Shown in pieces: positions 3,930 through 20,984 of a stretch of 39,575 bases of DNA (positions are counted from its first letter, which is position 1; every line of letters starts with the position of its first letter). A program made the translations under genes and the position numbers. The notes beneath the pieces were generated by a model that made no database searches, was not told where the DNA came from, and worked only from the letters and a program-made list of their open reading frames with translations. The stretch lies in IMG/VR virus record IMGVR_UViG_3300020042_006769, positions 1 through 39,575 of that record. One strand, given 5' to 3'. The DNA comes from a virus (lineage: Duplodnaviria > Caudoviricetes).

Positions 3930-5305
3930 AGCGTTACCCCAGGTGTTAATCGGCTAATAAGGCTTTTTATTTGCGAGATCTGTCCCGCTGTAAAATCGCG
4001 ATCATAAGACCGCCCCGGCAATGCACCGAAAAACATTTGCAAGTTTGCTGGTAGCGTAGTCCCTCCCCGGCGGAACAGATAGAGAACCGCGTTTGAGTAG
4101 TTGCCGGTTCCTTGATCGCCAGTGTTCTCGACTGCCGCATTGTTATCAATTTGAATGCGAGATAGATTGCCGGAAATATCTCCCGATGCTGTGACAACCC
4201 TGCCCGCCGTAGCGAGTGCGGAAGTTGCAACCGCATCGGTCAAAATCGTACCCTTTGACTCGAACGCATAAGTCGCACTTGCGGCATTTGGTGCAGTTAA
4301 ATGGAAGGCCCCATTATTGCTTGCGATGCTGGTAGTCAATTCACAAACCGTCCCTCTCGCCGCATCACTTAGCCGACGCAATCCGAAAAAAGCCGATACT
4401 ACATCTAAACCTGAATAATTGATCGCTGAAGTTGCATACCCGTCGTCAACCCCATCCGGTTGAACATAATAACAATCGGCTTGGCCTGATTCGGTAACGT
4501 CGTAAGCGGAAACGACTTTTTGGTAAGTTCCCCTTGCTGTGCCAGCTTCAAATTGTGCCCATCCAATGTTGATGGACCCTAATGCGTTTGTGTCCATCGT
4601 ACCAATCACACTATTTGCCGCCGGCGTTATCAAAACTTTCGCAGTAGTGCTACCCGCGCCGCTAGTTGTTTTTACTTCGACAAGCCAAAAACTATCTGAA
4701 TAGGACGAAACGGCTATAGTCCCGGCTGCTAAACCCGCCCGCGCTACCGTCGCGCCGGTTTTTGTATTCACAAAATGCCGATTAGTAACCGCAGACCCAC
4801 CAGAAAAGTCTAACCCAAATTCTGGAAATCGCGTTTCGTCATTGTCTTTAGCCAGCAAAAAAGAGAAAACGTAGGCGGTATTGGTCGCGACGCCCGTTAT
4901 GTCCTGACTTGCGAACAAAAACCCGACCCCGCTATCGGTCAATCGGTCAATCGTTGCGACGCCCGCCGGGTCGTTACTGACATTGGACGAGACCGATACC
5001 GTTTTGACCCAAATATCGTTGCTAAAATCTTCGCTATAGGTCAATAAATTACGTCTACCGCTTTTCGGCACTCGCCCATAGATTCCGCGATTAGCGTCCG
5101 TCCCTTGCGTTGCGTTCTTGCTATTTCCGCTGAAGTCGATCAAGGTCGCAACCGTCGCACCCAACGTGTTAGCCGCGATCATATCTGGATGACCGGGAAT
5201 GAACATTGGCCCAACTGTACCAGATGGAAACAACAAGCCTTTCAGTTGTGCAAATGTTGAAGTCCCAAAACCGGGACAAAGCATCACTTCATCAGATATG
5301 CTCAT
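3926..5305 (-). CDS. Virion fibre/carbohydrate-binding (ConA/LamG-like) protein
   Basis: RRNLLTYSEDFS, WAQFEAG...YQ and DGVDD motifs typical of phage receptor-binding/fibre proteins; A/T/S/G-rich. Confidence 0.65.
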   Translation of the reverse strand: MSISDEVMLCPGFGTSTFAQLKGLLFPSGTVGPMFIPGHPDMIAANTLGATVATLIDFSGNSKNATQGTDANRGIYGRVPKSGRRNLLTYSEDFSNDIWVKTVSVSSNVSNDPAGVATIDRLTDSGVGFLFASQDITGVATNTAYVFSFLLAKDNDETRFPEFGLDFSGGSAVTNRHFVNTKTGATVARAGLAAGTIAVSSYSDSFWLVEVKTTSGAGSTTAKVLITPAANSVIGTMDTNALGSINIGWAQFEAGTARGTYQKVVSAYDVTESGQADCYYVQPDGVDDGYATSAINYSGLDVVSAFFGLRRLSDAARGTVCELTTSIASNNGAFHLTAPNAASATYAFESKGTILTDAVATSALATAGRVVTASGDISGNLSRIQIDNNAAVENTGDQGTGNYSNAVLYLFRRGGTTLPANLQMFFGALPGRSYDRDFTAGQISQIKSLISRLTPGVTL

Positions 5306-12211: not shown

Positions 12212-12405
12212 GATTTCGTGCTTCTAGTGTTCCACGCCGGTATCTCTTCTGCTTCTATAAGGCTTAGGCGTTCGCGGTAGTCCTTGCCACTAAACCAGCA
12301 GTGTTCGGCGTGATTAAACCTATACAAGTCAAAGTGTTTTAGTTTTTTCGCAACCGCTCCACAAAACGGGCAATTGTCAATTTTCAGCGAAGTATCTATC
12401 TGCAT
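12205..12405 (-). CDS. Lar-like (restriction alleviation) Zn-binding small protein
   Basis: CPFCG...H...C...AWNTR pattern. Confidence 0.6.
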   Translation of the reverse strand: MQIDTSLKIDNCPFCGAVAKKLKHFDLYRFNHAEHCWFSGKDYRERLSLIEAEEIPAWNTRSTKSC

Positions 12406-13119
12406 GATTCAATAATCCTCCTACCTATCCACTCTGCGACTTGTGGAACGACTGCATTGCCTAATCCTCTAAGTCTGTCCACGAATCCGGGAATCCCTGC
12501 ACAGCTTCGATAACCGCTATGCTGGGGTACGTTTGGCCAAACCGGCGAGTCCACCAATGAACAAATGTCGTTTCCCGATTCGCTTTCAAATGATCTTTTA
12601 CCGTTCCGCCCTTCCATGCGTTCGCCGTAGGCGTCGGCATCAACACCAAGCACGAACAACCGTTCACGCCTGTGCTGTGCCCCAATGCAACACGCTCGCA
12701 GTCTGAAGGGCAAGCAAGCGTAACCAAGCGACTCAAGGCCAGTCCTGAATCTCCACCAAGGCCATGGAGCACCGACCCTGATGTGACTTGGATTCTCTCG
12801 CACCACAATGATTGGGCGAACCTCACCAACAATTCGCAAGAACTCACAGCCGAGGCTCTCTTTTTTGGATCGACCGGAACCGACTGCTGCACTGTTTGCC
12901 TGGCACGGATCGCCTCCGCAGATGACATCGACGTATTCAAGGTTATGCTTTCCGCATTGCCTGATGTCTCTTTCTCGATGGACGTTCGGCCAATGCTTTT
13001 CGAGAACTTTCGTTGCATAGTCATCTATCTCCACTTGCCATTTGCATTGCATTCCAGAACGTTCAAAGCCCAAATCAAAACCCACCTATACCAGCGAACA
13101 ACGAACCAAACGTTAACAT
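12396..13119 (-). CDS. C5 DNA-cytosine methyltransferase, with a +1 frameshift after codon ~14 in this assembly
   Basis: ATG 13119 with AAGGAGG RBS gives MLTFGSLFAGIGGF*. The +1 frame continues GFDLGFER..VEID..DI..GGDPCQ..ENP..HRRERLF..LGNAVVP (motifs I, II, III, IV, VI, VIII, X). Confidence 0.85.
12461..13024 (-). CDS. Alternative-frame C5-MTase beta polypeptide carrying motif IX (M.EcoHK31I-type); start uncertain
   Basis: Nested 187-codon ORF ending LMPTPTA...EAVQGFPDSWTD, a motif IX-like segment missing from the main frame. Confidence 0.65.
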   Translation of the reverse strand: MTMQRKFSKSIGRTSIEKETSGNAESITLNTSMSSAEAIRARQTVQQSVPVDPKKRASAVSSCELLVRFAQSLWCERIQVTSGSVLHGLGGDSGLALSRLVTLACPSDCERVALGHSTGVNGCSCLVLMPTPTANAWKGGTVKDHLKANRETTFVHWWTRRFGQTYPSIAVIEAVQGFPDSWTDLED

Positions 13120-13142
13120 GATATAGCCTCCTTTCTGTAATC

Positions 13143-13166
13143 GCTGGCATTGGATATAATGCCAGC
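13143..13166 (+). promoter_or_regulatory. Perfect 9-bp inverted repeat overlapping TATAAT immediately before the HNH ATG
   Basis: gctggcatt-ggatat-aatgccagc-ATG; TATAAT at 13155-13160 suggests a leaderless or autoregulated promoter. Confidence 0.55.
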
Positions 13167-13733
13167 ATGAGCAACCAATACACATACAGCGTTCCATTCA
13201 CTGAACAAGAGCTTCTTCATGACTACGAAGTTCTTCGCATGTCGCAATCTGAAATAGCATCCAAGTACAAGACAACGCAAAAAGTCGTTTGGAAGGCGAT
13301 GCGGAAGATGGGTGTCAAAACTCGCGTAGCCGCCAAGCGCGACCAGTGTGGCGACAGGAACACTTACTGGCGTGGCGGTCGCGTGTTGGTTGCGAAATCT
13401 AAAAGGCAACGCGGAGAGCGTACCTCTTTTGGTAACGGATACTATTACGTTCTGATGCCAGGACACCCGAATGCAAACAAAAGCGGATATGTTGCAGAGC
13501 ATATTCTGGTAGCAACTCAAGCATGCGGTAGATCGTTGAAAAAAGGTGAAGTTGTTCATCACATAAATTTGAATAAACACGACAACAGACCAGAAAACCT
13601 TGTCATCTGCAAAAGACGGCCGCACGCAATTTGGCATGTTCAGCTTGAAGAAATTGCCGTAGCGATGATGAATGAAGGATTGGTAAGGTTCGATTCCAAA
13701 AATGGATATACTCGCTCCTATACCCGCGAATAA
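13167..13733 (+). CDS. HNH (HNH_3-type) homing endonuclease with N-terminal HTH, antisense to the operon
   Basis: HP.A...GYV.EHILV.....GR.L...EVVHHIN..K.DNR.ENL motif; N-terminal MSQSEIASKY..TQ..V HTH. Confidence 0.9.
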   Translation: MSNQYTYSVPFTEQELLHDYEVLRMSQSEIASKYKTTQKVVWKAMRKMGVKTRVAAKRDQCGDRNTYWRGGRVLVAKSKRQRGERTSFGNGYYYVLMPGHPNANKSGYVAEHILVATQACGRSLKKGEVVHHINLNKHDNRPENLVICKRRPHAIWHVQLEEIAVAMMNEGLVRFDSKNGYTRSYTRE

Positions 13734-13744
13734 TGAACCAAAGG

Positions 13745-14752
13745 TTAGCATTTGACCTCCGCATTAAACGCCAACCTAGCTAATGAAACAAATCCGCCTT
13801 CTTGCAACTTCTCCAATAACTCCCTCGACGAATAAACATTCTCGTTCGGTTCGCCATTGTGAACCAAGATCCCATCAATCTCGAAACAAGCAACGCTTTC
13901 CGTTGTGTCAGGATTGACTTTCCACGGCACCAAATCAGGATGCAGAACGTGAGAACTGCAACCTGTTCGCTGATACTCTTTTGGAATATCGTCGGCATCG
14001 TGTAGCTCGCAACGCCAAGTGGAATTAGGCTTTGCGGTTGAATGAGCGCAAGTCCGGCAGTTAACCTGATTGGTTAACTTCGTTGAATGACAGAACGAAC
14101 TCGCATTGCATAGGCGACATTGATACCACTCTGGATCTGCTGATATCGGTTCTGGCATCCGATCAGATAACGCAATCCGCTTGCCTCTTTCGACTGCTTT
14201 GGTTGCCACCTCCTGATCGAAATAAACCCATTCTGTAAAAATGGAATCGTCATCCTTGTTGATTGCGAAATACAACCCGCGATCTAGTCCGAGTCCAAGC
14301 ATATAGGTTTGCATCTGGACATAATGCTCTGGCTTGCTTTTCTGAAGTCCATGCCGTTCCAAGTCCCGAAACGATTTTGCCGAATGCGTTTTGATTTCCA
14401 GCACCGCTCGCTTCTTGCCTTTTGCTGGCACATTGCTAACCACTCCATCCACTGAGCCAGAAACATGCGATCCAAAATTGACACACGATTGCGACGAATC
14501 AACCTCGATTCCGATTGCTTTCAAATCTTCGATGACGGTTTCTTCCTCCTTCTGTCCTCGCCTAAACAATCGCAGAATCCTGCCAGGAAACTTTGATTCA
14601 ATCGCCCAGCGGAAATACAACCAAAGCCACCTATCGCAAGGATGCCCCAATTGAGAACAGCCTAGATGCGTTCGCGATCCTTCGCGTTTGGCTTCATGGT
14701 GTGCGTCGATTAGAGACGCGATTGTGATAGTCGGTTCTGGAATGGGAGTCAT
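13745..14752 (-). CDS. Cas4/YqaJ-like PD-(D/E)XK exonuclease
   Basis: HLGCSQLGHPC, SGSVDG..LEIKT, QMQTYM, CRLC..FC Fe-S-type cysteines. Confidence 0.85.
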   Translation of the reverse strand: MTPIPEPTITIASLIDAHHEAKREGSRTHLGCSQLGHPCDRWLWLYFRWAIESKFPGRILRLFRRGQKEEETVIEDLKAIGIEVDSSQSCVNFGSHVSGSVDGVVSNVPAKGKKRAVLEIKTHSAKSFRDLERHGLQKSKPEHYVQMQTYMLGLGLDRGLYFAINKDDDSIFTEWVYFDQEVATKAVERGKRIALSDRMPEPISADPEWYQCRLCNASSFCHSTKLTNQVNCRTCAHSTAKPNSTWRCELHDADDIPKEYQRTGCSSHVLHPDLVPWKVNPDTTESVACFEIDGILVHNGEPNENVYSSRELLEKLQEGGFVSLARLAFNAEVKC

Positions 14753-19744: not shown

Positions 19745-19969
19745 TTAAGTTCCGTTCCGCGTCCTTAGTTTCCTGTTAAACAATCTTCGGATCACATACT
19801 GCCTAGCGAGCGATATCGCCGTGAACCATAGTCCGATTGTTAGGTTCTGTTTCAAACTGGCTTCAACTCCGACGATTGGAAACACGATCAACTGTGAGGC
19901 TATTGCAATCGTGTAGCCGATGGAGATGTTCCAAATGGATTCGATTAGTGATTCGGTTCTAGTTTGCAA
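19745..19969 (-). CDS. Small two-TM protein of the type often found beside phage MTases
   Basis: QTR..SLIES..NI.IGY.IA...Q...FP ... R.Y.IRR.FN; TTG start with GAGG RBS. Confidence 0.7.
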   Translation of the reverse strand: MQTRTESLIESIWNISIGYTIAIASQLIVFPIVGVEASLKQNLTIGLWFTAISLARQYVIRRLFNRKLRTRNGT

Positions 19970-20984
19970 TTGCGTCCTCGTCTGCAAAGTTGCAATCTGA
20001 ATCGCTTTGTTCTGATAATGAAAACAGAGATTTCGAAGCAAACTCTTTTTCAGCGTTGTCCAAGAATCTGCAAGCGTGATTGAAGTACGATTCCTTTAGC
20101 TCGATGCCGATAAACCGCCTGCCTGCTCGCAATGCTCCTACGCCTTCCGATCCGACCCCGGCAAACGGCGAAAAAACCACATCTCCAAAGTCGCTCCAAA
20201 TGTGTACCGCTCGCTCAATCAATCCCAATTGCAACGGGCAGATGTGTTTTTCATCGCCGTCACCTGTAGCCAGCTTGAAATTTAGAACGTCCGTTTGGCT
20301 TATATCCCACCAGACCGGATCTGCGTAGCGTTGCCAAATCGAGATACTACCGCGATTGCTGCCACGCCTTGCAAACTTTGACGGATGCGAGTTGTCAACT
20401 CGAGGATCTTGCAAGCCGACATACCGATTAAATCCTTCCGGTCTGACTATTGGCTTATCGCTCATGAGCCCATCTTTTGGCGGCTTTCGAAAGAGCAGTA
20501 GATAATCTGCCATGCCTTGACGGACTTGCGACGTGTCCCGCCGAACGGTCTTGTGAAGCAGTCCGTTGTTATTCGTTCGCTCTCGTTCGACAACAGGACA
20601 CTTCCAGATCGTGACGCGTGAATGATAAACCCAACCTGCAGCTTCGAATTCTGAAATGCACATGCCAGGGAAGTCGATCAATCCAGTCGTGCCGTACACA
20701 TTCGCGTATCGTGGCAAGTCCTTGCAATGAACCGCAACCAGACGCCCCGGAATAGTCGCCCGCAACATCTCAGCGATAGCGAATTGGTAGTGCTGGAAGA
20801 ATTCAGCATCGCTCGCACAATTGCCCATGTCATGCTCTGAATCGGAATAGATATACAGGCTAGAAAATGGCGGAGAGTGAATTCCGAATCCAATCGTATC
20901 GTCTGGAATTCCCTTTAAAACTTCGCAACAATCTCCGTTGTAAAGAGTCCAGTTTTCGCCGCTTGCTTGATTGATTACTTCCAT
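19959..20984 (-). CDS. N4/N6 DNA methyltransferase (beta class)
   Basis: SPPF catalytic motif precedes the H.CP and FSPFAGVGS SAM-binding motifs; GIELK. Confidence 0.9.
   Translation of the reverse strand: MEVINQASGENWTLYNGDCCEVLKGIPDDTIGFGIHSPPFSSLYIYSDSEHDMGNCASDAEFFQHYQFAIAEMLRATIPGRLVAVHCKDLPRYANVYGTTGLIDFPGMCISEFEAAGWVYHSRVTIWKCPVVERERTNNNGLLHKTVRRDTSQVRQGMADYLLLFRKPPKDGLMSDKPIVRPEGFNRYVGLQDPRVDNSHPSKFARRGSNRGSISIWQRYADPVWWDISQTDVLNFKLATGDGDEKHICPLQLGLIERAVHIWSDFGDVVFSPFAGVGSEGVGALRAGRRFIGIELKESYFNHACRFLDNAEKEFASKSLFSLSEQSDSDCNFADEDAIAN

Follow-up and report, generated by a model that had tools for sequence, protein, structure and literature searches.

A candidate intron-less homing cassette in motif I of a phage C5 methylase gene, with a replacement start and a predicted +1 frameshift site

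The stretch of DNA considered here (the window) is an entire virus record of 39,575 nucleotides (nt), IMGVR_UViG_3300020042_006769, in which Pfam and PHROG searches find portal, capsid-protease and terminase genes. Its minus strand carries a replication block made up of a Sak4-like protein, a single-strand binding protein, a Cas4-like exonuclease, a C5 methylase, a Lar-like gene, a helicase and a primase. The subject of this report is a cassette at the beginning of the C5 methylase gene. Here, the start of the methylase occurs twice. Both copies encode MLTFGSLFAGIG, and they differ at 6 of 36 nt, all of them synonymous. Between the copies lies an HNH endonuclease gene on the opposite strand (Pfam HNH_3, E 1e-11), whose stop falls within copy 1. 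It is preceded by a 9-base-pair (bp) hairpin over a TATAAT box (z -3.6 and -4.2), and a fresh ribosome-binding site (RBS) serves copy 2. Opposite the HNH gene runs a long open reading frame (ORF), called here the relay frame, which joins the first methylase start to the second (Table 1).

Table 1. Features of the cassette and its surroundings in the window
Feature	Positions	Strand	Basis or remark
Cas4-like exonuclease, upstream gene	13745..14752	-	phrog_1990 E 2e-91; stop inside copy-1 start (ATG-C-TAA)
Copy 1, native methylase start, now a stub opening the relay frame	13716..13751	-	RBS GGAGG 13760-13756; empty-allele contig runs on in frame
Relay ORF, 212 codons, codon-for-codon antisense to HNH	13113..13751	-	Ends inside copy-2 start
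HNH endonuclease, 188 amino acids, N-terminal helix-turn-helix and I-HmuI-like HNH domain	13167..13733	+	Pfam, alignment, predicted structure
9-bp inverted repeat over TATAAT (13155-13160, +)	13143..13166	+	6 nt before HNH ATG; likely leaderless promoter, likely operator
AAGGAGG, cassette RBS serving copy 2	13127..13133	-	Sequence
Copy 2, replacement methylase start	13084..13119	-	Sequence comparison
Junction GGG TTT T GAT with a surplus T; UUU_UGA predicted as a +1 shift site	13074..13083	-	Frame-0 stop 13077-13075
C5 methylase body, alpha chain (motifs IV, VI, VIII, X), +1 frame of copy 2	12396..13076	-	PF00145 E 4e-25
Nested alternative-frame ORF, motif-IX-like C-terminus, likely beta chain	12461..13024	-	ORF list; M.EcoHK31I-like layout
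Mobile cassette, approximate extent	13082..13714	.	Net 633 nt vs syntenic empty allele

The two starts, the HNH gene, the hairpin, the new RBS and the relay frame had been pointed out in a first-pass annotation of the window, made from its letters alone, and they are as it described. It had also described the stop codons of the upstream nuclease and of the relay frame as overlapping the ATG codons that follow them. The ORFs do overlap at both ATG-N-TAA junctions, but the codons do not; each stop begins 4 nt past the A of the ATG.

More consequential is the claim that the cassette rebuilds an open target gene, which does not hold. The frame of copy 2 ends GGT GGG TTT TGA, after only 14 codons, and the methylase body continues from the overlapping GAT in the +1 frame. 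The closest cassette-free allele, at locus L321, aligns to the window at 79% identity with a single gap in 706 nt, and that gap is one base at this T run. This +1 break after the Gly-Gly-Phe codons (GGF) means that the methylase gene either needs translational recoding or is dead.

The reading that we favour, and judge reasonably probable as a whole, is that an intron-less HNH homing cassette has entered the C5 methylase at motif I, bringing its own RBS and a replacement start, and that the extra T at the junction is predicted to block re-cutting while a +1 ribosomal frameshift would restore the enzyme. The parts of this reading differ in strength. That the element is a homing cassette with a replacement start we hold with high confidence; that recoding at the junction is functional we consider likely.

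A search with the HNH protein found 185 relatives, and scans with their alignment delivered 79 viral, 65 metagenomic and 19 genome loci. A close set was defined by at least 40% identity and a match starting within the first 25 amino acids (n=67, window included). Motif I DNA of a C5 methylase adjoins 67 of these 67 HNH hits, as the idea of a splicing-free cassette inserted at motif I demands, and in 61 of them a methylase-body hit lies within 400 nt. Among more distant HNH hits, only 4 of 90 show a methylase-body match nearby. Removing 17 near-copies (HNH at least 90% identical) and one fragment leaves 45 distinct cassettes. Both methylase-start copies are present in 34 of the 45, which bears out the proposal that the cassette supplies a replacement start, in the window one with its own RBS. 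The cassette design recurs in dozens of uncultured phages. Among cultured phages, 133 records matched, all at less than 60% identity and none covering more than 80% of the query; plasmids gave 7 distant matches. The cultured Paenibacillus sp. S02 encodes an HNH with 51% identity (WP_220025539.1), in a putative prophage. Of the 19 genome loci, which came from a GTDB scan, only L171 was informative; its HNH match is limited to residues 3-30, and it was left out of the relay counts below.

The first-pass annotation presented the element as an antisense cassette. This is true of the window, and is one of two forms in the family, where 23 distinct cassettes are antisense and 22 are sense. On a quick tree the orientation of the HNH changes at least three times, with two of the changes forced by strong branches. 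A separate clade of nine sense cassettes has short proteins, most of which match the window HNH only in the N-terminal helix-turn-helix region. The nucleases at L030, L035, L146, L150, L153, L159, L160, L162 and L163, and that at L193, are shorter, face the same target motif and mostly share only the helix-turn-helix region; domain swapping with conserved targeting is likely among such shorter nucleases.

If the cassette is mobile, an allele with the nuclease-methylase junction and no cassette should exist, and one low-depth contig, from run X1, shows such an allele. It covers the end of the nuclease gene together with copy 1, passes over 662 bases of the window with 29 others in their place, and then enters the methylase body, being 633 nt shorter and reading through in frame as MLTFGSLFAGIGGFDLGFERAGMQCKWQV. 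Because this contig joins copy 1 to the body in frame, copy 1 is the native start and the cassette amounts to a net 633 nt. Besides it, L321 and L322 are cassette-free. A closer relative, L002, whose nuclease is 93% identical, is without the entire methylase module. There the nuclease gene runs directly into the helicase gene, stop overlapping start at positions 3992-3999, with nothing of the methylase, Lar-like and HNH genes in between; upstream it has an ORF for a methylase of the N6/N4 type. Two other loci deserve mention. In L188/L189, a second, distant HNH gene stands antisense about 55 nt downstream of the shifted junction and is followed by a complete in-frame replacement start, apparently nested homing at a second site. 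L134/L135 are two hits on one 11-kb contig with equal match values and opposite orientation, possibly a duplication or an assembly artefact.

What, then, would protect the cassette from its own nuclease? The first-pass annotation held that synonymous recoding of copy 2 confers resistance to cleavage. Over TFGSLFAGIG the two copies differ at 5 of 30 nt, compared with an average of 8.1 among 18 ordinary alleles with the same peptide, and copy 1 and copy 2 across 31 loci show 165 synonymous and 30 non-synonymous codon differences. Since two independent alleles show as much, the six synonymous differences are ordinary allele divergence, and synonymous recoding was rejected as an immunity device. 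The +1 break after GGF would be the likelier protective device.

This break is not peculiar to the window. An insert of 1-7 nt follows an NTT codon in 32 of the 43 distinct cassettes with a readable junction, versus 2 of 59 methylase relatives collected with the methylase body as query (80 were found; 12 loci without a parsable motif and 9 duplicates were removed). Insert lengths were set by eye at L121, L132, L136, L145, L159, L161 and L163. The one-base inserts have the form TTT+T or TTT+C in 22 of 23 alleles, so that the A site holds a stop or CGA and a slip would lead to a Phe codon. When a scan admitted every xTx codon followed by any base, the one-base inserts that it gave were again of the TTT+T/C form, 7 out of 7. 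The junction of the window, UUU_UGA, thus offers what a programmed +1 site offers, a cognate re-pairing codon in +1 and a stop in the A site. CGA is a slow codon, and other viruses have UUU_CGN as a +1 motif.

Where the insert is longer, the codon ahead of it is ATT or CTT. With inserts of 5 nt, a purine-pyrimidine-pyrimidine codon comes just before reading resumes in 9 of 9 rows (8 when one near-copy is set aside), and so it does in all 6 alleles newly added by an HNH-blind scan; near-cognate landing of tRNA-Ile would be consistent with this. The Asp after GGx survives in only 3 of 12 cassettes that have no insert, versus 54 of 57 cassette-free alleles. The same spot is thus changed either by an insert or by a codon change, as expected of a nuclease target. 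Some junctions are unusual. That of L121/L122 places an in-frame CTT TGA CTA between GG and D, ahead of a 528-codon body, and is a candidate natural stop hop or readthrough. At L129 and L367 the insert after ATT is in frame (3 and 6 nt) and is accompanied by a long 5' stem; these inserts may be hopped or tolerated as extra residues.

Several points weigh against the favoured reading. The syntenic empty allele rests on a single 268-nt contig of depth 3. The cassettes are related to one another, so p-values overstate independence. Inserts of 2 and 5 nt are not fixable by a +1 slip and would need a hop, and their landing codons are mostly imperfect. Lastly, although relatives support the extra T, the window junction has no independent read coverage. 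It sits in a four-T run, and one may ask whether the T is a sequencing or assembly error, the in-frame replacement model being right as written. This we find hardly credible, since 22 further alleles, assembled independently, share the one-base break, since in 7 of these it reads TTTC and not as a longer T run, and since it is tied to HNH neighbours.

The tie to HNH genes can be seen without starting from them. Two HNH-blind scans gave 16 distinct insert alleles, with an HNH directly upstream in 7, downstream in 2 and none nearby in 7. The 7 of 16 compare with 0 of 75 in-frame alleles having at least 700 nt of upstream DNA among the matches listed (p 1e-6, or 1e-5 if one marginal hit to the helix-turn-helix alone is counted); these controls come from at least 120 loci listed of about 480, under a search pattern narrower than that for inserts. 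The 9 of 16 alleles with no HNH directly upstream tell against the favoured reading to a degree, for they fit loss of the HNH and also fit an independent regulatory role.

Such a role is the basis of a second explanation, in which the recoding signal is the methylase's own means of expression control, giving low or conditional output, and was captured by the HNH cassette with protection as a side effect. Stop-dependent +1 shifting is, after all, a known control device (prfB), and most of the nine alleles keep a strong RBS and a 5' stem. We consider this improbable. Inserts are rare (8 loci against an estimated 480 or so in-frame stretches, found with the narrower pattern) and strongly tied to the HNH, and the no-insert cassettes alter the same site by codon change. 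MobA bypass cassettes likewise outlive their nuclease (bioRxiv 2022.08.31.505936).

A different possibility is that the cassette does home but leaves a dead methylase, the insert being a scar of repair that avoids cleavage at the price of a dispensable gene, with relay and RBS serving only to avoid polarity. Orphan methylases of phages are often dispensable, as the missing module of L002 illustrates, and L127 and L131 carry a second break after about 38 codons, which likewise counts against a living enzyme. Intact bodies could, moreover, reflect recent insertion, as homing into fresh alleles would keep them looking intact. Against this stands the condition of the shifted genes. Phe re-pairing is possible at every one-base insert. 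In complete insert alleles, motifs IV and VI are kept in 22 of 25 bodies, and motif X as well in 19. Most variation in copy 2 falls on third codon positions (0.23/0.13/0.65; controls 0.19/0.12/0.66). In insert cassettes only, copy 2 has a stronger RBS than copy 1 (-13.3 vs -9.3 kcal/mol over 24 pairs, p 0.002), and if the strengthened RBS served just a 14-codon peptide, there would be no start at the end of that peptide for coupling. Insert alleles without an HNH keep open bodies of 222-317 codons (L190, L192, L401, L402, L405, L408 and L409; L401 and L409 have no clear motif IV match). A dead methylase is unlikely on this evidence.

The 5' stem pairs the start region with the Gly-Ile codons. 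It is present in 25 of 39 insert alleles and 23 of 113 controls, is very long in some, and is stronger in copy 2 than in copy 1 in 17 of 24 pairs (near-copies L128, L134, L147 and L121 were left out of these tests). A duplex 5' of a shift site has precedent as a +1 stimulator (PMC6321510, PMC3639245); in the former, a hairpin ahead of the site raised +1 shifting by 70S ribosomes only when release factor 2 (RF2) was absent. Less favourably, 4 of 12 no-insert cassettes have the stem too, its enrichment in insert alleles over them is not significant (p 0.21-0.54), it is weak in the window (pairing 0.02-0.16), and covariation is slight (2 of 12 pairs). A stem acting as a stimulator of shifting is possible, though unproven.

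The gene might also be restored at the level of DNA or RNA, by recombination between the copies or by splicing, and not on the ribosome. Direct repeats of about 36 nt do flank the HNH gene. Further, the incoming frame (HNH or relay) is the body frame in 24 of 29 out-of-frame insert alleles (+1, 18 of 22; +2, 6 of 7), something for which the favoured model gives no explanation. A crossover, however, would retain the extra base, because copy 1 of the window ends before the break. The insert is present, too, in alleles without copy 1 (L001, L026, L190, L192), and no recombinase is encoded by the cassette. As for splicing, an intron was considered and has no support: a flank of about 48 nt has no room for a ribozyme core, and there is no Rfam match at gathering level in 12900-13900. 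Restoration of this kind is very improbable.

We return to the cassette as a homing element and to the frame that crosses it. The first-pass annotation proposed that this frame stays open to preserve translational coupling, and suggested looking for depletion of TTA, CTA and TCA codons in other antisense HNH genes of this kind. The HNH gene of the window has none of them in 188 codons (P about 0.002-0.004, given the codon usage of the window). Across the 13 in-register antisense cassettes there are 14 antisense stops versus 66.5 expected from each gene's own third-position composition, and nine have none. All 23 antisense cassettes together have 36 versus 120.2 expected; the 22 sense cassettes have 100 versus 130.4 (p 6e-4). 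The other two reverse frames show no difference in stops. Placement of the incoming stop tells a similar story. Counted from the copy-2 start, it lies between -10 and +17 nt in all 19 scored sense cassettes, where it is the HNH stop and frequently forms ATGA or ATG-N-TAA. The relay stop lies in this range in 14 of 22 antisense cassettes. The first methylase start of L130 could not be placed.

The relay ORF of the window has no Pfam or PHROG match, and the pattern suggests that relay frames are very probably kept open by selection. Copy 1 is in register with the relay frame in 13 of 18 antisense cassettes. Because it is out of register in the other 5, and because L027 has 10 stops, the relay frame is not obligatory. 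The coupling idea therefore stands as a well-supported pattern of selection, in openness and in stop placement, and not as a strict requirement. In L025, copy 1 runs in frame into the HNH start, so that the stub could add an N-terminal extension to the nuclease.

The nuclease itself has the expected parts. It matches PF13392 and joins an HNH core to a DNA-binding domain; H131, H132, N140, N144 and H157 are invariant in the family alignment, the catalytic His/Asn among them. The predicted structure (pLDDT 88) consists of a helix-turn-helix and an HNH domain. Its top structural match is I-HmuI (1u3e), with a modest Z of 6.2 (root-mean-square deviation 2.8 over 75 aligned residues); a Foldseek search with it turned up nothing at E 0.001 or below. 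In 18 of 39 cassettes the HNH start is preceded, at a distance of exactly 6 nt, by a -10 box, and Shine-Dalgarno pairing is slight there; most others carry a Shine-Dalgarno sequence instead; the HNH is likely made from a leaderless transcript. The left arm of the inverted repeat reads as the motif-I codons A-G-I-G. The repeat is thus a likely operator as well as a likely relic of the target site, and its target-like arm makes autorepression by the HNH likely.

These observations can be arranged as a proposed cycle. The HNH, made from a leaderless transcript, would nick or cut empty alleles around the G-I-G-G-x-D codons. Repair would then copy the cassette, leaving the recipient's own start as copy 1. 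Ribosomes coupled from the upstream nuclease would traverse the relay frame, terminate within the start of copy 2 and begin anew from the strong RBS, a role that would fall to the HNH frame in sense cassettes. At UUU_UGA (UUU_CGA in relatives), tRNA-Phe would re-pair one base on, and in relatives with inserts of 2-7 nt after AUU or CUU the tRNA would hop to a near-matched codon. The inverted repeat would likely let the HNH repress itself. The element appears to be a real and recurrent mobile cassette, with homing and relay well supported by comparison, and immunity by micro-insert and ribosomal recoding is the most likely mechanism.

The precedent for a micro-insert that gives immunity and is overcome by recoding is MobA of phage T4. 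MobA brings a homologous replacement region and the bypass insert blocks nicking (Manning and Atkins, bioRxiv 10.1101/2022.08.31.505936). Both systems place an intron-less HNH element in a conserved coding motif. In T4 gene 60 there is a diverged host copy (HomR) and a non-coding insert, removed by recoding, that blocks self-nicking; the counterparts in the window would be copy 2 and its insert. An element-borne homologous replacement beside a candidate recoding insert is thus common to both, and in both families inserts are found without the nuclease. The differences are also clear. The target is C5 methylase motif I, whereas in T4 it is a topoisomerase large-subunit gene. The coding gap is 1-7 nt, compared with about 50 nt having matched take-off and landing codons in gene 60; landing codons in the window family are cognate for one-base inserts, and most of those for longer inserts are imperfect. 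In the window the entire host gene starts over, where in T4 it is divided into two subunits that have added tails. Unlike MobA, the HNH can be antisense with a relay frame. By this analogy, the window cassette would work like T4 MobA/gene 60 without being a member of that system.

Other systems share single features. The ShiLan domain of mycobacteriophage methylases is an unspliced HNH in a phage methylase with a short duplicated peptide at the site, a second frame open across the HNH, and leaderless translation proposed. There, HNH and methylase share a strand, and the host frame runs on into the methylase without a stop, giving one fusion protein (PMC11855218). In the window, unlike ShiLan, the open frame terminates at a fresh RBS and start, and to get to the body a ribosome would have to cross a frame break; read-through of the ShiLan type was ruled out by two stops (13115-13113 and within copy 2) between relay frame and body. 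T4 homing endonucleases, such as I-TevI with its autorepression and hairpin control (PMC2988022), also have a target-like sequence overlapping the nuclease's own promoter; the window differs from I-TevI in its sigma70-type -10 box, likely leaderless start and lack of an intron.

In prfB-type +1 frameshifting, as proposed for the window, a P-site tRNA that is next to a stop or slow codon slips to a cognate codon overlapping its own. In prfB an internal Shine-Dalgarno sequence stands at a set spacing from the slip; the window junction has none at the prfB spacing.

A literature search, sparse for subscription journals, found no description of motif-I cassettes with frameshifted replacement starts, although the supplements of bioRxiv 2022.08.31.505936 could list related elements. 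The gene 60 bypass cassette is described as unique in bioRxiv 10.1101/2022.08.31.505936, and according to a 2016 review (PMC5009743) no natural in-frame stop hop was known. This bears on a wider claim, to which we lean only tentatively and with somewhat more doubt than belief. It is that a widespread family practises graded natural micro-recoding at one site as self-immunity, from +1 slips through hops of 2-7 nt, with a stem burying start and take-off codons, to an in-frame stop hop (L121/L122), while a selected antisense dummy frame carries the ribosomes. If true, this family would end the uniqueness of the gene 60 bypass and provide the first natural short hops.

The T4 MobA bypass is one well-studied answer to the problem met by a homing endonuclease gene that invades a conserved coding motif without an intron or intein. 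The window family would provide a second answer, independent of the first and minimal, in dozens of natural variants that are told apart only by an insert of 1-7 nt. This, in turn, would make the origin of bypassing and the rules of short hops testable with small reporters. In the relay frame, selection would maintain an open reading frame for the passage of ribosomes and not for any known protein. Phage methylases whose present annotation is frameshifted, or without motif I, may be active.

The methylase body has a layout of its own. FAGIGG, GGDPC, ENP, HRRERLF and GNAV are found in the alpha frames and a motif-IX-like segment in the nested frame; these we take to be motifs I, IV, VI, VIII, X and IX of C5 methylases. 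In comparison with L321, the body has a non-synonymous divergence (dN) of 0.12 and a synonymous divergence (dS) of 0.87. The nested ORF is open in L321 too, and its C-terminal 55 codons have dN 0.14 and dS 1.32. A motif IX chain in another frame inside the alpha gene is also the arrangement of the two-chain methylase M.EcoHK31I (PMC2836561), although the window enzyme is, unlike it, an orphan phage enzyme. The same two-frame layout is found in relatives L001, L190, L193, L207, L228 and L321. Finally, the phage has a second methylase gene, of the N6/N4 type, at 19959-20984 on the minus strand, beside which the ORF list shows no HNH.

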